From NCBI GenBank assembly GCA_964561855.1, contig CAZLQP010000002.1:99-64098 (forward strand): 64,000 nucleotides of DNA, given 5' to 3'. The notes under the pieces were generated by a model. It was given only the letters and a program-made list of their open reading frames with translations. It was not told the DNA's origin and searched no databases. The stretch comes from an uncultured Burkholderiales bacterium (GTDB lineage: Bacteria > Actinomycetota > Acidimicrobiia > IMCC26256 > JAGPDB01). A program made the position numbers and the translations under genes. This document shows, piece after piece, positions 13,463 to 59,642 of this stretch. How positions within the stretch are numbered: position 1 is the first letter of the stretch; every line of letters begins with the position of its first letter.

Positions 13463-13768
13463 CTAATTGATGCGGCCTTCGAGAATGTCTTGGACATCTT
13501 GGAGAGAAACGCCTTCAGCACGAATTGCAACTAAGGCATGATAAAACAGATCAGCTGCTTCTTCTGCAATCGACAACTGATTTCTATCAACACATGCAAC
13601 CACTAATTCAGCAGATTCTTCACCGATCTTTTTCAGACGAAGATTTCGATCACTAAGCAAGTCATCGGTGTAACGATTTTGAGGATTATCTTTTCGCTCA
13701 GCAATAACTTCATCCAAGCGTTCCAAAGCAGATCTTTCGTTATTTGTCACTTTCAGCTCCCGCTTCAT
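13463..13768 (-). CDS. hisE: Phosphoribosyl-ATP pyrophosphatase
   Basis: 101 aa with a MazG-like HisE pattern (KKIGEESAELV..EEAADLFYH). It is the last gene of the his operon and overlaps hisI by 29 nt. Confidence 0.8.
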   Translation of the reverse strand: MKRELKVTNNERSALERLDEVIAERKDNPQNRYTDDLLSDRNLRLKKIGEESAELVVACVDRNQLSIAEEAADLFYHALVAIRAEGVSLQDVQDILEGRIN

Positions 13769-14111
13769 AAGATTTGTCGTTTACAAAACATGTTACCGTA
13801 CCGTTATGGCAAGCCGGCCCTCGAGGATTAACCAAAGCCAGAATCGTATCGTTATCGCAATCAAGATGTAGCGAAACGACCTCTTGAAAATTACCGCTGG
13901 TCTCGCCCTTATTCCAAAGTCCACGTTCACGAGATAAATACCACATAGTAGAGGTCTCTAGTGTCTTCTCAATTGCATGTCGATTTGCGAACGCTGTCAT
14001 CAAAACTTCTTTTGTTGAATAATCCTGTACAACAACGACGACAACGCCATTACTCTTTTCGAAATCTATTTGATCAATAAATTCGTTCTGATACTCAGTC
14101 AAATTATTCAC
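13740..14111 (-). CDS. hisI: Phosphoribosyl-AMP cyclohydrolase
   Basis: 123 aa with the motifs LWNKGETSGN and LDCDNDTILALV..GPACH. Confidence 0.85.
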   Translation of the reverse strand: MNNLTEYQNEFIDQIDFEKSNGVVVVVVQDYSTKEVLMTAFANRHAIEKTLETSTMWYLSRERGLWNKGETSGNFQEVVSLHLDCDNDTILALVNPRGPACHNGTVTCFVNDKSYEAGAESDK

Positions 14112-14890
14112 ATCAATTTTCCTCGATCACGCACAACAAAACCGCTATCTTTTAGTCCTGCTTTAATATCTGCAATCGAAGTAGTTCCATCGTGCAAAAT
14201 ACCAGCTAAAAGTGCGGCATCCGCTACACCTGTCTCATATACCTGGACAACATCAGAAATCTTCCCGGCTCCACCAGATGCAATCACAGGAACATTCACT
14301 GCATCCTTGACTGCTCTTAACATCTCGATGTCATATCCAATTCTTGTACCATCACGATCAATTGAAGTCAGTAAAACTTCGCCAGCACCTAGTCGAACTG
14401 CCTCTTTAGCCCACGAAACTGCATCTAACTCTGTAACTTGTGTTCCACTACGTACAACAACTTCATAGTGATCATTAACTTTGCGCGCATCTATAGAAAT
14501 CATAACGCATTGTGAACCAAAACGTTCTGCTAGTTCAGTAATAAGTTCCGCTCGAGCAACAGCAGCAGAATTCACTCCCACTTTTTCTGCGCCAGCCAAC
14601 AAGGCTCTAGTTGCATCTTCAACAGTTCTTATTCCGCCACCGATTCCAACGGGGATCGAAACGTTGTCAGAAATTTCTTGCATTACGTGAAAGAAATTGT
14701 TTCTCTCTTCTTGTGTCGCCGAGATATCTAACAAAATCAACTCATCGGCACCTTCTTCTTGATATCGACAAGCAAGCTCTACCGGATCACCAACATCTTT
14801 TAAATCAACGAAGTTTGTTCCTTTAACTACACGACCGTTTGCTAAATCTAAACATGGAATCAATCTGGTACACGTCAATGTATCAGTCAT
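14108..14890 (-). CDS. hisF: Imidazole glycerol phosphate synthase cyclase subunit
   Basis: The motif RLIPCLDLANGRVVKG starts right after the Met at 14890. The listed ORF start at 14983 is an upstream extension running inside hisB. ATG 14890 overlaps the hisB stop by 8 nt. Confidence 0.9.
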   Translation of the reverse strand: MTDTLTCTRLIPCLDLANGRVVKGTNFVDLKDVGDPVELACRYQEEGADELILLDISATQEERNNFFHVMQEISDNVSIPVGIGGGIRTVEDATRALLAGAEKVGVNSAAVARAELITELAERFGSQCVMISIDARKVNDHYEVVVRSGTQVTELDAVSWAKEAVRLGAGEVLLTSIDRDGTRIGYDIEMLRAVKDAVNVPVIASGGAGKISDVVQVYETGVADAALLAGILHDGTTSIADIKAGLKDSGFVVRDRGKLM

Positions 14891-15425
14891 CAAACGTCCA
14901 CTCTGCCGCACCTTTGGTGCTAAATACATCTCCCGAGTCTTGCAAAGCTTGACGCAAACACAGCCCCAAGCCTTTGAAAGCACCTTCGATTATGTGATGC
15001 TGGTCTACTCCACGTAAAACTCTAACGTGAATATTGCACTTGATATTTTCAGCAATCGATCTAAAGAAGTGTTCGAAATCTAAATCGGGCAATGGCCCTT
15101 CATAATAGTTTCGCTCGACAAGATCTAACGTTACCTCAATCAGTGCGTCATCCATTGAGACTCTTGCAGTTCCAAAACGTGCACATGTCTGAGGAGTGAC
15201 TCTTCTAATTGCAGCACCTAAAGTAATAGCAACATCTTCTGAAATATGGTGATCTAGATCACCTGTTGCGTTAACAGAAAAATTAAGTCCGCTATATCGT
15301 GAAAGCGTTACCAACATGTGGTCTAAAAATTCTATAGTTGTCGAGCACTCAATCGGAGTATTTTCGCCTTTGTCAGGAATGGTGACAACAATATTTGTTT
15401 CTTTCGTGTTTCGTTTTACTTGCAC
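14883..15425 (-). CDS. hisB: Imidazoleglycerol-phosphate dehydratase
   Basis: 180 aa with RNTKETNI at the N-terminus and HH..E metal motifs (DHHISED, DQHHIIEGAFK). Confidence 0.85.
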   Translation of the reverse strand: MQVKRNTKETNIVVTIPDKGENTPIECSTTIEFLDHMLVTLSRYSGLNFSVNATGDLDHHISEDVAITLGAAIRRVTPQTCARFGTARVSMDDALIEVTLDLVERNYYEGPLPDLDFEHFFRSIAENIKCNIHVRVLRGVDQHHIIEGAFKGLGLCLRQALQDSGDVFSTKGAAEWTFDD

Positions 15426-15448
15426 AATATGTCCTTTGGTTTATAACT

Positions 15449-16186
15449 TTAGTGTTTTCGACTTGTTAGCCCATTAGCTTGAAGCTCATATAACAATTCT
15501 TCGTTAGTATAAATTGCAGCTCCCATGACCACTTCGGCCACTCCTACCTGGGATAATGCAATAATATCGCTGAGATCTGTAACTCCGCCAGATGCAACCA
15601 CGCTTCTTGAAGTCCTATTTACGATACTCTCAAAAAGCTCAACGTCCGTACCCTGCATTCGGCCTTCTTTATGAATTGCAGTCACGAAAATTCCAGCAAT
15701 TTCTAAACGATCAAAACGCACTATCAATTCTTCAAGTGAAAATTCAGATGTTTCTTGCCATCCTTTTATCTTCACATCTCGGCCATCTACTTCTAGAGCT
15801 ACATAAATTCTTTGCGGATATTGAGCAACCATTTCTTCGAACCAATTTGGTTCAGCAATAGCTTGTGTTCCGATCACAACACTATTTGCTCCTGCGTCAA
15901 GTACTTCTACAAGTGAATCCGTGTTTCTTATCCCTCCGCCGACGCGAATATCTAGATCATTATTTTCAGATCCAATTTTGCATATCTCGCGAACTACCTC
16001 GATGTTATTTCCTTTTCCCGTCGCACGATCGAGATCAACTACATGAAGTTTCACAAACCCCTTAGTGATCCAGTCACCCGCAACTGCTTCAGGATCTGGC
16101 AGCCTAAGGAGTTCATTATCATATGAACCTCCAACAAGCTGAACACACTGTCCTTCTCGAATATCAACGGCTGGTCTAACAATCAC
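15449..16186 (-). CDS. hisA: ProFAR isomerase (HisA; could be a bifunctional PriA type)
   Basis: 245 aa with the (beta/alpha)8 HisA motifs RPAVDIREGQCVQLVGG and ASGGV. Confidence 0.85.
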   Translation of the reverse strand: MIVRPAVDIREGQCVQLVGGSYDNELLRLPDPEAVAGDWITKGFVKLHVVDLDRATGKGNNIEVVREICKIGSENNDLDIRVGGGIRNTDSLVEVLDAGANSVVIGTQAIAEPNWFEEMVAQYPQRIYVALEVDGRDVKIKGWQETSEFSLEELIVRFDRLEIAGIFVTAIHKEGRMQGTDVELFESIVNRTSRSVVASGGVTDLSDIIALSQVGVAEVVMGAAIYTNEELLYELQANGLTSRKH

Positions 16187-16791
16187 GATAAAACTTCCTT
16201 CAAAAACTTATGCACCAATGAAATCCCAACTACGTCACTTTTTTCAGGGTGAAACTGAGTTGCCAATAAGCTCGGAGTCCTCAAGATACTCGCAAACGTA
16301 TCATCTTCATAAGTAGTCATACCTGCAACAATTGAGTCATCCTTAGGTCGCACTGCGAAACTATGAGCGAAATAAGCCCAATCGATTATTTCGTATTGTG
16401 CATTCGCATGAGCAATTTTATTCCAACCCATCTCTGGGATTTGTTTTGCATTGAGTGTTGTAACATCTCCTTCGAAAACTCCAAGTCCTTTCCCGACACC
16501 TTCTTCGGAAGATTCGAACAGTAATTGCATTCCTAGACATACAGCAAATGTTGGCTTGCCGGACTTTATGAGATCTCTTAGATCGCTACTAAAGACTCCT
16601 AGATGTTCGCATGCAGCTCCCCAAGAACCAACTCCAGGAATTATTAAAAGATCAGCTTCATTCATCTCGTTAACGTCTTTCGAAAGACTGACTTTGACAT
16701 CTGTGCCGATGGTTTGACTTGAACTCTCCACGCAACGCTTTAAGGAACGGATATTTCCCACACCATAGTCAATAATCACTGCTTTTTTCAT
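16183..16791 (-). CDS. hisH: Imidazole glycerol phosphate synthase glutaminase subunit
   Basis: 202 aa with IIDYGVGNIRSL, the catalytic-Cys context AVCLGMQLL, and QFHPEKS. Confidence 0.9.
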   Translation of the reverse strand: MKKAVIIDYGVGNIRSLKRCVESSSQTIGTDVKVSLSKDVNEMNEADLLIIPGVGSWGAACEHLGVFSSDLRDLIKSGKPTFAVCLGMQLLFESSEEGVGKGLGVFEGDVTTLNAKQIPEMGWNKIAHANAQYEIIDWAYFAHSFAVRPKDDSIVAGMTTYEDDTFASILRTPSLLATQFHPEKSDVVGISLVHKFLKEVLS

Positions 16792-17852
16792 GAGTATTTC
16801 CTGATGATTTCGAGCATTGGCTCTAATACTTCTTTGGGTGCGATCGTGATTCGTGCACCTGTTCCAACAACAGGTAGTTCTTTAAACCAGCGAATCGAAT
16901 ATCCAGCTTTTTTGAACTCTGGCTTAAATTTTTCTTCATCAAGACCTGAAACATAGATGAAATTCGAGTCGCTATCTTCAATCTGATAACCCAAAAACCT
17001 CAATTCCATACTGAACCAATCTCTAACTCTCCTAGTCTCAGTTACCACCTGTTCATGAAAATCTCGAGCCCCAAACGATGCTTTGGCAGCTTCGATACCG
17101 ATTGTGTTGGCTTTAAACGGTCCTCTTATTGCCTCTACAGCATTGATCAGATCGCCATTTCCAAGAGCGTAGCCGATCCTTAATCCTGCTAAGCCATGTA
17201 GTTTTGACATCGTTCTCATAATGATCACTCTTTTGCAACGTCTTAAGAAATCAAGTGCATCAAGCTCTGCAAACTCTGCATATGCTTCATCAATAACGAT
17301 GAAACAATTCGTTTTTTCTATCAGTTCAGCAATATTTGAGTGAGGTATGCTTACACCTGTCGGATTATTCGGAGAGCATAAATAAATCAAATCTGGTTTG
17401 TATGACGAAATCTCTTCAACATTTATGGAACCATCTGAATCGAGCTCGCTACCCGTAACTCTCCGACCATTCACTTTAGAAAAATATCCTGCCATAGGAA
17501 AAGTCGGCATTGGCATAACGACTAAATCATTTTCATCTGTTACTGCCCGAATAATGCAATCAAGTACATCATCAGTACCATTTCCTACAACCACATTTGA
17601 TGTGTCATCAACAAACTTCGAATAGTGTTTAGCAATTACTTTCTTCAACTCAAGCGCATAGATATCTGGATACCTCGACAAGTTAACACTGCTGTCAGAT
17701 GAAAGTCTTTTCAAAACTGCTTGAACTTCATCAGCTATTCCCCATTGCGAAGTATTGTCACTAAGATCAAATTCAATTGGCGTTCTGCGCGGATCGTAAA
17801 CCTCTACATTTGAAAGACGCTTAGGTAAAAGATCTCTAATTTCTTGACTCAT
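16788..17852 (-). CDS. hisC: Histidinol-phosphate aminotransferase
   Basis: 354 aa with the PLP-lysine motif MSKLHGLAGLRIGY and SPNNPTG. Confidence 0.85.
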   Translation of the reverse strand: MSQEIRDLLPKRLSNVEVYDPRRTPIEFDLSDNTSQWGIADEVQAVLKRLSSDSSVNLSRYPDIYALELKKVIAKHYSKFVDDTSNVVVGNGTDDVLDCIIRAVTDENDLVVMPMPTFPMAGYFSKVNGRRVTGSELDSDGSINVEEISSYKPDLIYLCSPNNPTGVSIPHSNIAELIEKTNCFIVIDEAYAEFAELDALDFLRRCKRVIIMRTMSKLHGLAGLRIGYALGNGDLINAVEAIRGPFKANTIGIEAAKASFGARDFHEQVVTETRRVRDWFSMELRFLGYQIEDSDSNFIYVSGLDEEKFKPEFKKAGYSIRWFKELPVVGTGARITIAPKEVLEPMLEIIRKYS

Positions 17853-18745
17853 ACGATTAGCCTCTCAATATGAGTTACCAATATCCCACTTACCCCAAGC
17901 TCACGCAATTTTGGAACTACGACATTTAACTCTGAAGCTGGTAAAACTACATGTACCGCGACTCGATCAGTGTTTTCATAAAGATCCAAAACAGTAGGGC
18001 CATCAATTCCTGGTACTAGAGACTTCACTTCATCTAAAACATCTTTTGGTACATTCATCATCATGTAACGTTTTCCATTAGCAGTCAAAACCGAAACGAG
18101 AGCCTCACTGAAATTTTTTGCTTCTTGTGCTTTTGTAGATCCAGATTCAAGATCGAAATTTGGATCAGCAATAATGCAAGCGCTGACATTACATAGCGTC
18201 TCAATTTCGTGCAGACCATTTGTTCTCAACGTCGAGCCACTTTGAGTTAAGTCCACTATCGCATCAGCTATTTCTAGTCTTGGGGCAATCTCCACCGAAC
18301 CTGAAAGTGGTATCAAATGAATATCAATTCCTGCCTGCTTTGCCCAGCGAGCAGCTAAGCGAGGGAATGATGTAGCAACTCTTATCGAAGATGGTTTTGA
18401 TTTCTTATACTGGTCTTTAAACTTTTCTCGTGCAGCTAGTACAAGTCGACATTCAAACAGATCAAGAGGTGAGGCAACTTGAACATTAACACCTGCTTCA
18501 TCAACAACATCGGTTCCTGTTACACCTAGATCAACTACTCCATCTTCCACTAAAGCAGGAATGTCATCTGTACGCACAAACATAACCTCGACATTTGGAG
18601 TGAGTTTACCAATCAGTGCTTTAGTTTCTTCAGAACTTGGCCATGAATACCCTGCCTGTTTACACAATGGTTTTAGTTGTTCTGCAATCCTGCCTTTTCT
18701 AGGCATCGCAATTCTGAGAATTTCATCTTGTTTATCAATGGTCAT
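17849..18745 (-). CDS. hisG: ATP phosphoribosyltransferase, long form
   Basis: 298 aa with LRIAMPRKGRI at the N-terminus and a C-terminal regulatory-domain length. It shares 4-nt overlaps with hisD and hisC. Confidence 0.85.
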   Translation of the reverse strand: MTIDKQDEILRIAMPRKGRIAEQLKPLCKQAGYSWPSSEETKALIGKLTPNVEVMFVRTDDIPALVEDGVVDLGVTGTDVVDEAGVNVQVASPLDLFECRLVLAAREKFKDQYKKSKPSSIRVATSFPRLAARWAKQAGIDIHLIPLSGSVEIAPRLEIADAIVDLTQSGSTLRTNGLHEIETLCNVSACIIADPNFDLESGSTKAQEAKNFSEALVSVLTANGKRYMMMNVPKDVLDEVKSLVPGIDGPTVLDLYENTDRVAVHVVLPASELNVVVPKLRELGVSGILVTHIERLIV

Positions 18746-20049
18746 TTTTCCCCCAATTTATTTTCATCCATTCTTGCCACTGAACTCATCGCGTGACCAG
18801 TTAAGCCTTCCATTTCACCGAATACTGCTGACAAAGGTGCGAGTTTGAGATATGCCTCTTCGTTAATCTCAATTATTGATGTCCTTTTCATAAATGAATT
18901 GGCACTAAGACCTGATGTAAATCGTGCAGTTGAATTAGTTGGCAAAACATGACTTGGTCCAGCAACAAAATCTCCTAGCGGCTCAGCGGAATACTTTCCT
19001 ACGAACACTGCTCCAGCATTGAATACGTTTTGCGCATCTTGTGCTGCATTTTCTGTTATAACTTCAACGTGTTCTGGAGCACATTGATTTGTTATTTCGA
19101 TTGCTTGACTAATTTCATCGACCAAAACTAAATATATTGACTCTTTGAATACCTTTTCAAAGCCTGGATTGTCTTTTATCTTTGATTTCAACTCATTCAA
19201 TTTGGTCTCTGTTTCTTCGATTAGAGTCCGAGAGTTTGTAAGCAAAACTGATGATTCAAAACCTGAACCGTGTTCTGCCTGGGCTACAAGATCACATGCG
19301 ACACAATACGGATCAGCACTGTCATCGGCAATCACAAAGACTTCACTCGGACCTGCAACCATATCAATACCTACAGTTCCACAAAGAAGTTTCTTAGCAG
19401 TTGCCACGAAACTATTTCCTGGCCCACAAATGAAATCTGCCCGCTTTATGGTTTGGGTTCCATAAGCTAGTGCCGCTATTCCTTGTGCTCCTCCCACAAA
19501 CACAACTTCTGTAACTCCAGAAGCGTACGCAGCATAAGCAACTGCAGGATTCAGTTCTTGCTCTTTTGGAGAAGTTATCATCACGATTTCTTTTACTCCA
19601 ACAGCTTTTGCGATTGCTGCTGTGTGAATTGCAGTTGACACTAAAGGAAAGGAACCCTGCGGAACATAGCATGCAACTCTGTTAAATGGATAGAAATTCT
19701 CTCCTACAACTTGACCTTGAGCTGCGCTTTTCTTCCAGCTTCTCGGCATTGATTCAGAAGCTACGAAAGTAACATTTTCAATTGCTACATCTATCGCTTC
19801 TACTTCAATTTTTCTTAGTTGTGATTTAGTTCTTTGCACATACTCGCCAAGTTCTTCGCGATCCATAATTTGAGGTGAAGAAATCTCAATAGAATCGAAT
19901 TTCAATGTGTAATCACAAAGCGCTTTGTCTCCTTTGTTTCTGACATTTTGTAGAATTTCACTCACAGTTTCATCTACCACTGAACTGCTCGACGATCGCG
20001 TAAGCACTTCAAAAATCTCATTTGTGTTTTGTTTTTCAATAATTTTCAT
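18742..20049 (-). CDS. hisD: Histidinol dehydrogenase
   Basis: 435 aa with a typical HisD layout (GGAQGIAALAYGT, AQAEHG, GDFVAGPSHVLPT). A GGAG Shine-Dalgarno sits 8 nt upstream of the ATG. Confidence 0.9.
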   Translation of the reverse strand: MKIIEKQNTNEIFEVLTRSSSSSVVDETVSEILQNVRNKGDKALCDYTLKFDSIEISSPQIMDREELGEYVQRTKSQLRKIEVEAIDVAIENVTFVASESMPRSWKKSAAQGQVVGENFYPFNRVACYVPQGSFPLVSTAIHTAAIAKAVGVKEIVMITSPKEQELNPAVAYAAYASGVTEVVFVGGAQGIAALAYGTQTIKRADFICGPGNSFVATAKKLLCGTVGIDMVAGPSEVFVIADDSADPYCVACDLVAQAEHGSGFESSVLLTNSRTLIEETETKLNELKSKIKDNPGFEKVFKESIYLVLVDEISQAIEITNQCAPEHVEVITENAAQDAQNVFNAGAVFVGKYSAEPLGDFVAGPSHVLPTNSTARFTSGLSANSFMKRTSIIEINEEAYLKLAPLSAVFGEMEGLTGHAMSSVARMDENKLGEK

Positions 20050-20101
20050 CTAAATCTCCGGAATTAATAAACAGTCCTAATACGTTAGCGGGTATTTAGA
20101 T

Positions 20102-20129
20102 AAAAAAAGACCCGCCTATTTTGGCGGGC
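20102..20129 (-). terminator. Intrinsic terminator / attenuator hairpin of the his leader
   Basis: The minus strand reads GCCCGCC-AAAAUA-GGCGGGU followed by C and U7. It lies 26 nt after the leader-peptide stop and about 55 nt before the hisD ATG. Confidence 0.75.
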
Positions 20130-20158
20130 AATGTACACAGATATGCGAAGTTACCCAC

Positions 20159-20206
20159 CTAGTTATGGTGGTGATGATGAACTTCGGTGAAAAATGTCTG
20201 TGTCAT
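20159..20206 (-). CDS. Histidine operon leader peptide MTQTFFTEVHHHHHN (15 aa)
   Basis: The minus strand reads ATG ACA CAG ACA TTT TTC ACC GAA GUU CAT CAT CAC CAC CAT AAC TAG, with five consecutive His codons. It is below the 60-aa cutoff of the ORF track. It is positioned between a promoter and a terminator upstream of hisD. Confidence 0.7.
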   Translation of the reverse strand: MTQTFFTEVHHHHHN

Positions 20207-20214
20207 GGATTTCA

Positions 20215-20243
20215 AGTATAAGCCTCAACCTCACACCTGTCAA
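20215..20243 (-). promoter_or_regulatory. Sigma-70/SigA-type promoter of the his leader (TTGACA-17-TATACT)
   Basis: On the minus strand, TTGACA is at 20243-20238, followed by a 17-nt spacer and TATACT at 20220-20215. Only 8 nt without a Shine-Dalgarno precede the leader ATG, which implies a leaderless or near-leaderless transcript. Confidence 0.55.
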
Positions 20244-20251
20244 CCGGAGCA

Positions 20252-20318
20252 ACCGGAGGACTGACCCTCCAAATGCGACAAATCGCTTTTGTACCTTTTG
20301 GAGGGTCAGTCCTCCGGT
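20252..20318. repeat. Family-2 hairpin repeat (22-nt arms, 22-nt loop)
   Basis: The arms ACCGGAGGACTGACCCTCCAAA and TTTGGAGGGTCAGTCCTCCGGT are perfectly complementary. The right arm contains the last codons and the stop of xth (..PED*). Related copies lie at 39968-40035 and 59608-59642. Confidence 0.9.
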
Positions 20319-21112
20319 GAAGCGAGTTCGATGGAGACGGGGCAATGGTCTGATCCTTTTACATCCATATGAACTTGAGGATTGCTCACCTTATCTAAAA
20401 GGTCACTACTTACCATCCAATAGTCAATCCGCCAACCTACGTTTCGCTCTCTAGCCATCGCAAAGTGCGACCACCAAGAATAGACCTCTGTTACATCAGG
20501 ATTGAAATGTCTGTATGTATCTACAAAACCAGCTTCAACCAAATTAGTAAATCCTTGTCGCTCTTCATCTGTAAAACCATGTTTACCTACATTGCGTTTA
20601 GGGTTCGCCAAATCAATTTCTTGATGAGCAACGTTTAAATCTCCACAAAACAAAACGGGCTTTGCCATCTGTAGAAACTTCATGTACTCCAGAAATGCAC
20701 AATCCCAATGTTTCTCTCTTAAAACTAAACGGCCTAAATCTCCTTTGGCATTTGGAGTATAAACAGTCGTTACAAAGTAATCATCAAATTCTAAAGTTAA
20801 GACTCTTCCTTCAGAATTCGTATCTCCAAATTCATCAGCTAGTTGATACTTCGATGCAATTTCAATCGGAATGTCTCTAGAAACTGATATCGGTTTGACT
20901 TTAGTGAAAATTGCAGTACCGCTATATCCTTTTTTTTGAGCGCTGTTAAAATATTCGACATATTGTGGATAGTCGATGTCAACTTGGTCTCGATTAGCTT
21001 TGGTTTCTTGTAAGCATAAAATATCTGGATCATGAGCGTCTAAAAAGTCATCGAATGCACCTTTGTTAATTACTGCTCGAATTCCATTTACATTCCAAGA
21101 ATAAAGTTTCAT
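20306..21112 (-). CDS. xth: Exodeoxyribonuclease III
   Basis: 268 aa with LCLQETK, a GDLNVAH-type motif (CGDLNVAHQEID) and a C-terminal SDHCPV. Confidence 0.9.
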   Translation of the reverse strand: MKLYSWNVNGIRAVINKGAFDDFLDAHDPDILCLQETKANRDQVDIDYPQYVEYFNSAQKKGYSGTAIFTKVKPISVSRDIPIEIASKYQLADEFGDTNSEGRVLTLEFDDYFVTTVYTPNAKGDLGRLVLREKHWDCAFLEYMKFLQMAKPVLFCGDLNVAHQEIDLANPKRNVGKHGFTDEERQGFTNLVEAGFVDTYRHFNPDVTEVYSWWSHFAMARERNVGWRIDYWMVSSDLLDKVSNPQVHMDVKGSDHCPVSIELASPED

Positions 21113-25544: not shown

Positions 25545-26941
25545 CCCACCGAACCTTCCATGTTCAGCTCGATCAATCGTGTGAGTTCAACAGCATATTC
25601 CATCGGTAAAGTTCGAGTTACTGGTTCAATAAATCCGTTAACAATCATCGCTGTCGCTTGCTGTTCACTTAATCCTCTAGACATCAAATAGAAGAGTTGA
25701 GCATCTCCTACCTTAGAAACGGTAGCTTCATGGCCGATCTTTGCATCCTTTTCTTCAACTTCCATATAAGGATAAGTATCGCTTCTGGAATCTTCATCCA
25801 AAATCAGCGCGTCACATCGAACATGTGATTTAACGTCGGTTGCACCTTCTTCTACTCGCACTAAACCTCTGTAGGTCGTTCTTCCACCATCTTTTGATAT
25901 AGATTTGGAATCAATAACAGATGTTGTTTCTGCAGCCGCGTGAGTCATCTTTGCACCAGCATCTTGATGCTGGTCTTTTCCTGCATATGCAATAGACAGA
26001 ACTTCGCCATGGGCTTTTCTTCCAGCCAAAACAACTGCGGGATATTTCATAGTAAGTTTTGAACCTAAGTTTCCATCAATCCATTCAACAGTTGCATCTT
26101 CATGAGCTAAAGCGCGTTTTGTAACCAGGTTGTAAACATTTGGTGACCAATTTTGGATTGTGGTGTATCTAATTCTCGCGCTCTTTTTAGCAATCAGTTC
26201 AACAACTGCTGAGTGAAGTGAATCAGTTGTATAAACAGGTGCAGAGCATCCTTCTACATAATGAACGTTAGATCCTTCATCTGCAATGATGAGAGTTCTT
26301 TCGAACTGTCCAGCATTTTCTGAATTGATTCTGAAATATGCTTGTAAAGGCATATCCACAGTGACCCCAGGAGGGACATAAATGAAAGATCCACCTGACC
26401 AAACTGAAGAATTGAGTGCAGCGAACTTATTGTCCCCTGGAGGAATTACTGTTGCAAAATGCTCTTTAACAATATCTTCATGTTCGCGAAGCGCTTGATC
26501 CATTGAACAGAAGATGACACCTTGTTCTTCTAATTCAGCAATGTTTTTATGCATCACAACTTCTGATTCATATTGCGCTGTTACACCTGCAAGATATTTC
26601 TGTTCGGCTTCAGGTAAACCAAGTCGTTCATAAGTAGTTTTCATTTCTTGAGGAAGATCATCCCATTCAGAAACTTGCTTATTCGTAGGTTTTAAGTAGT
26701 AGTAGATATCATCGAAATCAATATCGGGCATGTTTTGAGCAAACCATTTCAGCATTGGTTTTTTCTCAAAGCGCTCTAGGGACTTTAAACGAAAATCTGT
26801 CATCCATTTCGGTTCAGATTTTGAATGAGAAATTTCTTTAACAACTTCTGTGTTCAAGCCTTTTTTAGGCTTGATCTCATAGTCAACTTTGTCTGACCAC
26901 CCTAATTTGTACGATCCAAGATCGATATCAGCTTTTGCCAT
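25541..26941 (-). CDS. sufB: Fe-S cluster assembly protein SufB
   Basis: Highly conserved SufB sequence (..RCDALILD.., [20 protein letters not shown]). The ATG at 26941 has an AAGGGAAG Shine-Dalgarno. The listed GTG at 26959 is probably too far upstream. Confidence 0.9.
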
Positions 26942-59607: not shown

Positions 59608-59642
59608 TCCGTTTTGTGAAAAATGGAGGGTCAGTCCTCCGG
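59608..59642. repeat. Half copy of family-2 repeat (loop 3' part plus right arm)
   Basis: CCGTTTTGTGAAAAATGGAGGGTCAGTCCTCCGG aligns with CGCTTTTGTACCTTTTGGAGGGTCAGTCCTCCGG at 20284-20317. It supplies ..PED* to CDS 59631..60620. Confidence 0.8.

Follow-up and report, generated by a model that had tools for sequence, protein, structure and literature searches.

The minus strand of the window, by which we mean the whole 64-kb stretch of DNA analysed here, carries a short leader between an exodeoxyribonuclease III gene (xth) and a histidine biosynthesis operon that begins with hisD. We read this leader, with a probability of roughly 0.8, as a ribosome-mediated transcription attenuator of hisDGCHABFI that is driven by a leaderless, His-rich leader peptide. 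The initial annotation, made from the letters of the window, had proposed a hisL-style attenuator, and this is still the best reading: the His-run open reading frame (ORF), the complementary segments and the intrinsic terminator are all conserved in relatives, and folds computed with a masking ribosome switch between the two states. Judged from its sequence, the leader most likely switches the his operon on when histidine is short. It is convergent with enterobacterial hisL, and we class it as a genuine cis-regulatory element under conservation, best placed as a His-specific addition to the known leaderless leader-peptide attenuators of actinobacteria.

The leader was compared with those of nine related loci (L020, L021, L105, L107, L108, L109, L110, L112 and L113), all from uncultured Acidimicrobiia metagenome-assembled genomes (MAGs), in which HisD is 57-68% identical to that of the window; "the ten leaders" denotes the window together with these nine loci. 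In the window, the leader comprises the following features, in which nt stands for nucleotides and MFE for minimum free energy.

20238..20243, minus strand: −35 hexamer TTGACA (consensus match; a TTGAC-like hexamer is aligned in most relatives).
20215..20220, minus strand: −10 hexamer TATACT, ending 8 nt before the ATG (sequence reading; box conserved in the ten leaders).
20159..20206, minus strand: predicted leader ORF MTQTFFTEVHHHHHN, 15 codons plus stop, with ATG at 20206 and TAG at 20161-20159 (orthologous ORFs in nine relatives).
20180..20206, minus strand: 5′ coding extension of region 1, with CGAAGUU at 20186-20180 and AUGACACAGA at 20206-20197 (MFE structure, z-score against shuffles).
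20165..20179, minus strand: five consecutive His codons, CAT CAT CAC CAC CAT, the putative sensor (codon-run scan).
20171-20167, minus strand: core of region 1, CCACC, within the His codons ((U)CACC:GGUG(G) consensus helix in ten sequences).
20151..20159, minus strand: region 2, GGUGGGUAA, 5′ arm of the antiterminator, whose first base is the G of the UAG stop (complementarity, conservation).
20131..20150, minus strand: spacer separating region 2 from region 3 (contains sequences that pair with the 5′ coding segment).
20152-20146 and 20141-20131, minus strand: the spacer partners, AACUUCG, which overlaps region 2 by 2 nt, and UCUGUGUACAU (MFE structure, helix search).
20123..20131, minus strand: region 3, UUGCCCGCC, 3′ arm of the antiterminator (CCCGCC invariant in 10/10 leaders).
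20129-20123, minus strand: GCCCGCC, 5′ arm of the terminator, inside region 3 (terminator scan).
20110..20116, minus strand: region 4, GGCGGGU, 3′ arm of the terminator (hairpin of −13.8 kcal/mol; GGCGGG invariant in 10/10 leaders).
20102..20108, minus strand: U7 tract of the intrinsic terminator (T-run in all relatives).
20087..20093, minus strand: region 5, ACCCGCU, complementary to region 4 (7 bp, −12.5 kcal/mol).
20056..20059, minus strand: hisD Shine-Dalgarno (SD) sequence GGAG (sequence reading).

The coordinates assigned initially to the promoter, ATG, ORF, His codons, regions 2 and 3, terminator and hisD GGAG all proved right, and hisD, which had been placed about 55 nt downstream with its own GGAG, begins 52 nt past the end of the terminator (ATG at 20049, GGAG at 20059-20056). 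The promoter, TTGACA-17 nt-TATACT, matches the consensus at 11 of 12 positions and is the sole promoter-like site in 19800-20600. His codons make up 5 of the 15 codons of the leader ORF and are consecutive, forming the only run of at least four on either strand of the window. Downstream of this run, GGTGGGTAA (20159-20151) is complementary to TTGCCCGCC (20131-20123) over 9 bp, two of which are G.U pairs. The intrinsic terminator GCCCGCC-AAAATA-GGCGGGT-C-T7 (20129-20102) has a 7-bp stem with six G-C pairs and a 6-nt loop, and the 3′ end of an attenuated RNA of about 100 nt is expected at its U7 tract (20102-20108). Intrinsic terminators are generally rare in Actinobacteria (PMC2965389). A simple scan for a hairpin followed by a T-run finds only four canonical ones in the 64 kb, and despite this rarity one of the four is placed in the 5′ leader of the his operon. 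The 120-nt leader as a whole has an MFE of −34.8 kcal/mol (z = −4.7 relative to dinucleotide-shuffled sequences). The single His run, the scarce terminator and this fold, like the recurrence of the arrangement in nine related loci, argue against a chance assembly.

The arrangement is conserved in the related loci. The search of regions upstream of hisD suggested in the initial annotation recovers a His-run ORF plus terminator in all nine, and in all nine the leader lies directly upstream of hisD-hisG-hisC. It usually follows MMPL-xth; in L108 the upstream neighbour is instead a 567-aa protein with no Pfam match on record, and in L113 an extra ACT-domain gene lies in between, so the leader travels with hisD and not with xth. 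A −10 box, TATAMT or TAATAT, ends 7-9 nt before the ATG in 10/10 leaders, leaving no room for an SD sequence in the predicted transcript, and a TTGAC-like −35 hexamer is present in most related loci. On sequence grounds, this fixed spacing supports, but does not prove, the leaderless start that had been proposed.

Furthermore, the conservation of the coding region follows the pattern of a translated frame. The leader ORFs of all nine relatives have 12-21 codons, among them 3-5 His codons in a row, and often further His codons a short way upstream of the run; their peptides include MTRTHTHGHHHH, MNTFTSYAHLHHHHILVGA, MTTRFVSAHAHHHHILVGA, MTRLFVSAHHAHHHMLVCA and MKRINTAPSNSLHHHHIVASA, each followed by a stop codon. 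Outside the His run the peptide sequence is poorly conserved, and a C-terminal ILVGA is dispensable in two lineages. In the alignment of the leaders, the ORF-internal indels (6, 6 and 3 nt) are all multiples of three, and those in the spacer are of arbitrary length; the His codons vary synonymously between CAT and CAC, and every one of the ten ORFs has an in-frame stop codon. The frame-preserving indels and the synonymous exchange of His codons point to translation of the leader ORF.

Consistent with a role as RNA, the pairing segments are conserved in a different manner. GG(U/C)GGGU(G) lies about 5 nt past the His run, and its core, GG(U/C)GGGU, is kept in 8/10 leaders, with single substitutions in L108 (GGUGUGU) and L113 (GGCGAGU). 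The sequence GGUGGGUG is coding (I-L-V-G-A) in eight relatives and lies 3′ of the stop in the window and in L020, so region 2 is conserved as RNA and not as amino acids. After a spacer of variable length, the hairpin (A/G)CCCGCC-loop-GGCGGGU and a run of 5-7 U are invariant in 10/10 leaders.

Beyond these loci, the hisD homologues next in similarity, P0022 at 52% identity and P0025 at 46%, each stand alone, not within a his operon, and lack a leader; one of the two adjoins S-Me-THD-domain genes and the other sits between PIN/antitoxin gene pairs (L116-L118, L119-L121). A scan of GTDB genomes with the window HisD returned no close relatives, only HisD loci of 36-42% identity, almost all from Firmicutes, and a scan of metagenomes with degenerate patterns from the HisD alignment returned, among the matches listed, only loci of 36-46% identity; both sets serve as outgroups. 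A covariance model (R1) and a seed alignment (A3) were built from the Acidimicrobiia leaders, and R1 finds no second site in the window and no match in 99 outgroup loci.

The folding of the leaders agrees with the logic of an attenuator. For the ten leaders, the RNAalifold consensus consists of just two helices, namely (U)CACC:GGUG(G) and the terminator. In the register of the 2:3 antiterminator, 82.5% of the cells of the alignment are paired, versus 34-49% when the arms are slid by 1-3 columns. The 9-bp antiterminator and the terminator both need GCCCGCC and are therefore mutually exclusive. In the comparison of their energies that had been suggested, the 2:3 duplex amounts to −14.2 kcal/mol in the window, and the segment from region 2 to region 3, at −16.1 kcal/mol, is slightly more stable than the 3:4 terminator hairpin at −13.8 kcal/mol. 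The MFE structure of the window leader combines the terminator with a long 1:2 hairpin composed of CCACC:GGUGG, CGAAGUU:AACUUCG and AUGACACAGA:UCUGUGUACAU, the last of which buries the 5′ AUG of the leader ORF. Thus, the CCACC:GGUGG helix described at the outset is part of the MFE structure, but the structure is much larger, extended by the two further helices.

We next represented the ribosome as a mask that forbids pairing up to 13 nt past the first base of the A-site codon. Free RNA folds into the terminator in 9/10 leaders, and 10/10 do so when the ribosome is placed at the stop codon. With the ribosome stalled on an early His codon, the antiterminator becomes the MFE structure in 8/10 leaders. 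The 1:2 / 2:3 / 3:4 logic that the initial annotation had drawn from the window is supported, as the complementarities are conserved in relatives and the masked folds give the expected switch.

Several results weigh against this reading. The MFE structure of the window leader flips to the antiterminator at one stall only, with His3 in the A site and everything 5′ of it masked. When the footprint is set to 28 nt and the 5′ end stays unmasked, equilibrium folding gives no switch of the window leader, because the helix between the 5′ end and the spacer competes. L108 and L113, which have a mismatch in region 2, never switch in silico. The marginal equilibrium switch in the window means that co-transcriptional, kinetic control must be assumed, in which 2:3 would form ahead of the synthesis of region 4; the decision is likewise kinetic in the classical attenuators of trp and his. 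As for the promoter, the match alone is not significant, with one found versus 1.5 expected in shuffles of the 800-nt region; it is credible because it is conserved in relatives and not because of its match score. True compensatory covariation is minimal in the leader helices, because their arms are nearly invariant, as expected when one segment must fit two partners. The structural support is therefore complementarity plus conservation, not covariation.

From the sequence we infer where transcription starts, that the ORF is translated, that termination takes place in vivo and that the operon responds to histidine; these events would be connected as follows. A sigma-A-type promoter would start the RNA at, or within a couple of nt of, the AUG of the 15-codon ORF, since the conserved spacing between −10 box and ATG fits the rule of Corynebacterium glutamicum, in which a TANNNT box lies 7 ± 1 nt upstream of the site at which transcription starts (TSS) (PMC3896937). 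A ribosome would load on the 5′ end once this has emerged and would then trail RNA polymerase. With ample His-tRNA, it would pass the five His codons and reach the UAG, where it would bury region 2 (GGUGGGUAA), because region 2 begins with the final base of the UAG; GCCCGCC would then pair with GGCGGGU, and the hairpin followed by U7 would terminate an RNA of about 100 nt. With scarce His-tRNA, the ribosome would stall on the first His codons and cover region 1, and region 2 would stay free to pair with UUGCCCGCC before region 4 is made, so that no terminator would form and polymerase would read through into hisD. Without translation, the coding region would pair with region 2 and the spacer in the long 1:2 hairpin that hides the 5′ AUG, and the terminator would form, making off the default state.

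Two putative features of the leader would be absent from the textbook attenuator model, namely the sequestration of the AUG and the pairing of region 5. The helix between the 5′ coding segment and the spacer has z-scores against shuffles of −3.7 in the window, −4.0 in L108, −2.8 in L109, −2.6 in L105 and −2.4 in L110; such coding:spacer helices are significant in 5/10 leaders and are formed by different sequences in different lineages. Pairing of the 5′ AUG with the spacer through differing sequences suggests selection for hiding the AUG, and this pairing may limit ribosome loading to the first moments of transcription. It resembles the first hairpin (H1) of the C. glutamicum ilvB attenuator, which blocks leaderless initiation and acts as an anti-antiterminator (PMC11857589).

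Region 5 was overlooked in the earlier three-pairing account, of which the 1:2, 2:3 and 3:4 pairings are conserved. In 10/10 leaders the U-tract is followed by a segment with complementarity to GGCGGG (z −0.7 to −3.9, mean −2.0, against shuffles); this segment is GCCCGC in most relatives and UUCGCC in L113. Because region 5 lies past the termination point, it can have no influence on whether transcription terminates. One possibility is that it locks the fold of the read-through RNA, with 2:3 and 4:5 formed; another is that it serves as a GC-rich element of the downstream DNA that favours pausing. A tentative extension of the attenuator, which we hold to be possible though doubtful, is a five-segment leaderless device of independent origin in Actinomycetota, in which the spacer hides the AUG and region 5 pairs with region 4 in the read-through RNA. 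In such a device, the AUG would be sequestered after about 75 nt have been transcribed, so that only one pioneer ribosome, loaded straight onto the 5′ end and closely coupled to the polymerase, could read the sensor, and region 5 would lock the ON fold or couple it to mRNA stability or to hisD translation.

Region 5 also bears on the strongest rival explanation, a translational or dual attenuator in which the leader ribosome would control access to the hisD ribosome-binding site through 3:4 / 4:5 / 5:SD pairing. Region 5 is conserved and complementary to region 4, and a stretch of the window that takes in the U-tract and region 5 (20106-20089) can form a helix of 18 nt, at 83% complementarity, with the SD and AUG of hisD (20060-20043; −16.5 kcal/mol, z = −3.2); moreover, the leaderless polycysteine small ORFs (sORFs) of mycobacteria do act translationally, by sequestering a downstream SD, and have no intrinsic terminator (10.1101/834739). 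However, none of the nine relatives has the SD-sequestering helix (z ~0), and we rejected it as a conserved feature; it is peculiar to the lineage of the window or else a coincidence. Unlike the mycobacterial sORFs, the leader described here has a textbook terminator with a U-tract that is invariant in the ten leaders. We regard a translational or dual device as unlikely.

Transcription attenuation of the his operon is also to be weighed against an independent small gene, encoding either a metal-binding His-rich peptide or a trans-acting leader RNA, with hisD expressed by constitutive read-through. A terminated RNA of about 100 nt would be a stable, structured transcript, and trans-acting attenuator RNAs and peptides are known in Sinorhizobium. 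We give this explanation little chance, as the element always accompanies hisD and never stands alone in the loci examined, the amino acids outside the His run are poorly kept and ILVGA is dispensable in two lineages, no promoter-like site lies between the terminator and hisD, and the 2:3 complementarity would be left without a role.

Even less probable is an untranslated ORF within a T-box-like or protein-dependent attenuator that senses tRNA-His or a regulator bound to the CAY repeats. Such an element has a precedent in the 5′ untranslated region (UTR) of C. glutamicum hisD, for which a T-box-like element was proposed; this UTR has an SD and no His-rich ORF, which excludes translation-coupled attenuation there (PMC3896937). 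That UTR and the leader of the window resemble each other in being RNA-level elements upstream of an actinobacterial operon that begins with hisD. In the leader described here, by contrast, the ORF is central, and the frame-kept indels, the fixed distance from −10 box to ATG and the in-frame stops of the ten leaders point to translation. The T-box family (RF00230) has no match in 19500-20800 at E ≤ 10, nor one that reaches its gathering threshold in the window and the nine relatives, and no other Rfam match is at its gathering threshold or credible at E ≤ 10. The permissive matches, RprA (25.7 bits, threshold 70) and Thr_leader (15.2 bits, threshold 55), were rejected as chance-level. Finally, a chance co-occurrence of hexamers, ORF and hairpin, for which it may be said that the promoter-like match is no commoner than in shuffles, or a hairpin that is merely the terminator of xth, has a negligible probability, being already refuted by an arrangement kept in ten lineages whose HisD proteins have only 57-68% identity to that of the window, by the hairpin that xth has of its own upstream of the promoter, and by the leader staying with hisD where xth is not adjacent.

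As a ribosome-mediated attenuator, the leader is closest in logic to enterobacterial hisL (RF00514). In both, the first his gene is preceded by a short ORF containing a His run and then by anti-antiterminator, antiterminator and terminator helices that exclude one another, and in both the His codons lie within the first pairing segment; the proposed responses are also alike, with read-through on stalling and termination both with a ribosome at the stop codon and without translation. Unlike hisL, with which it has no sequence or structure homology, the leader has five His codons (3-5 in relatives) instead of seven, has by its predicted leaderless geometry no SD and no 5′ UTR, precedes hisD instead of hisG, has an extra conserved segment after the U-tract, and belongs to the phylum Actinomycetota. 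The proteobacterial His_leader family RF00514, of which the leader is therefore no member, gives no match even at E ≤ 10 in 19500-20800, and no Rfam family reaches its gathering threshold in the window, over its whole 64 kb, or in the nine relatives.

His-leader attenuators have also been predicted in Firmicutes, specifically in the Bacillus cereus group, in Peptostreptococcaceae and Lutispora, and in Erysipelotrichales (PMC9413887, PMC2965389). They share with the leader of the window a His-run upstream ORF (uORF) with 3-5 His in a row, a terminator/antiterminator and independence from RF00514. As a control of the method, the same scan for a uORF plus terminator recovers the predicted His attenuators of Lutispora (L010) and Tepidibacter (L003, L005 and L013). 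PMC9413887 names Lutispora and the family Peptostreptococcaceae; Tepidibacter and Izemoplasmatales are not named in the passages available. A Candidatus Izemoplasmatales MAG (L004, 1249-1395) likewise carries a His-run uORF, MIIMNTNVYYQAHHHKT and a stop, then a terminator, upstream of his genes. The Firmicutes-type leaders in L003, L004, L005, L010 and L013 lie about 1.7-1.9 kb upstream of hisD and presumably precede hisZ or hisG. Their terminator and helix sequences (GCCATGTAGGTATA...) are unrelated to the CCCGCC/GGCGGG of the leader described here, and R1 matches none of them.

Within the phylum, a TSS-based catalogue of Streptomyces lividans lists leaderless leuL, trpL, ilvL, alaL, metL and thrL and no hisL (PMC8079986), and in Corynebacterium such leader-peptide attenuators are known for trp, ilvB and leuA (PMC1262725, PMC11857589). 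The leader of the window resembles these leaderless attenuators in phylum, in a start codon that coincides with the transcript start (predicted here), in its hairpins followed by a U-rich stretch, and in an ORF of 12-20 codons that contains the regulatory codons. It differs in its His specificity, as none in the surveys is His-specific, and in its host, a low-GC uncultured member of Acidimicrobiia. The leaderless geometry singled out in the initial annotation does fit actinobacterial biology but is not new, since leaderless leader peptides are already established there (PMC8079986).

Looking at the histidine operons of actinobacteria, Seliverstov et al. detected no RNA structure that is conserved upstream of them (PMC1262725), and the earlier statement that such attenuation is not described for these operons agrees with PMC1262725, PMC3896937 and PMC9413887. 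The literature covered yielded no hisL in Actinobacteria and no attenuator in Acidimicrobiia; Korolev et al. searched this phylum for His-containing leader peptides in a conference paper of 2015, outside that coverage, and a prior description is possible. Undescribed in the literature covered, the family is His-specific, comes from an uncultured low-GC lineage of Acidimicrobiia, and has the conserved fifth segment and the predicted sequestration of the AUG.

Conceptually the finding holds no surprise: attenuation of this type is textbook, and the phylum was already known to have leaderless leader peptides. It fills a gap, as comparative surveys had come up with no RNA regulatory element in front of the his operons of actinobacteria (PMC1262725) and the only studied actinobacterial case, that of C. 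glutamicum, is an ambiguous T-box-like UTR (PMC3896937). It is also a case of convergence, in which the logic of hisL, with independent origins in Proteobacteria and in Firmicutes, would have arisen once more, this time on a leaderless transcript of uncultured low-GC Acidimicrobiia. Seed alignment A3 and model R1 are ready for a new cis-regulatory RNA family, and the small leader ORF is one missed in annotation. The fifth segment and the hidden 5′ AUG hint at how ribosome loading may be synchronised with transcription where there is no SD.

The host clade is uncultured low-GC Acidimicrobiia. The closest HisD proteins, 57-68% identical to that of the window, include named ones only from MAGs labelled Acidimicrobiia bacterium, and every named match of a 983-aa UPF0182 protein of the window comes from Acidimicrobiia, Acidimicrobiales or Actinomycetota; the UPF0182 matches are located on the same contigs as the HisD relatives. 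The window is assigned to low-GC Acidimicrobiia because the named homologues of both proteins all come from that group. Its GC content is about 40% over the whole 64 kb, and that of the relatives is 37-49%. The earlier label "actinobacterial" was thus correct despite a GC content that is unexpected for an actinobacterium.

The regulated operon and the canonical terminators of the window are as follows.

13740..20049, minus strand: operon hisD-hisG-hisC-hisH-hisA-hisB-hisF-hisI (NCBIfam assignments).
20129-20101, minus strand: canonical terminator, that of the leader (hairpin plus T-run scan).
25956-25982, plus strand: canonical terminator (same scan).
46061-46029, minus strand: canonical terminator (same scan).
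53339-53306, minus strand: canonical terminator (same scan).

The hisG gene of the operon is of the long form (NCBIfam). The hisB ORF (14883-15425) and the hisF ORF (14108-14983), counted from their first start codons, overlap by about 100 nt, so the real hisF start is probably further downstream. The last gene of the operon (123 aa) matches the cyclohydrolase half of HisI only, so hisE must be elsewhere. No tRNA gene was found across the 64 kb.

The gene upstream of the leader is xth, and an inverted repeat at 20252-20318, with 31-nt arms that are 90% complementary, a 5-nt loop and no T-run, overlaps its stop codon and lies directly upstream of the −35 hexamer of the his leader. An 18-mer of this repeat, GGAGGGTCAGTCCTCCGG, is found exactly a third time at 59625-59642, again over the 3′ end of a gene. 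The GGAGGGTCAGTCCTCCGG inverted repeat may act as a terminator that lacks the U-tract, or it may be a repeated element of small size. Both genes that carry the 18-mer at their 3′ end finish in P-E-D-stop, followed by CCCTCC.

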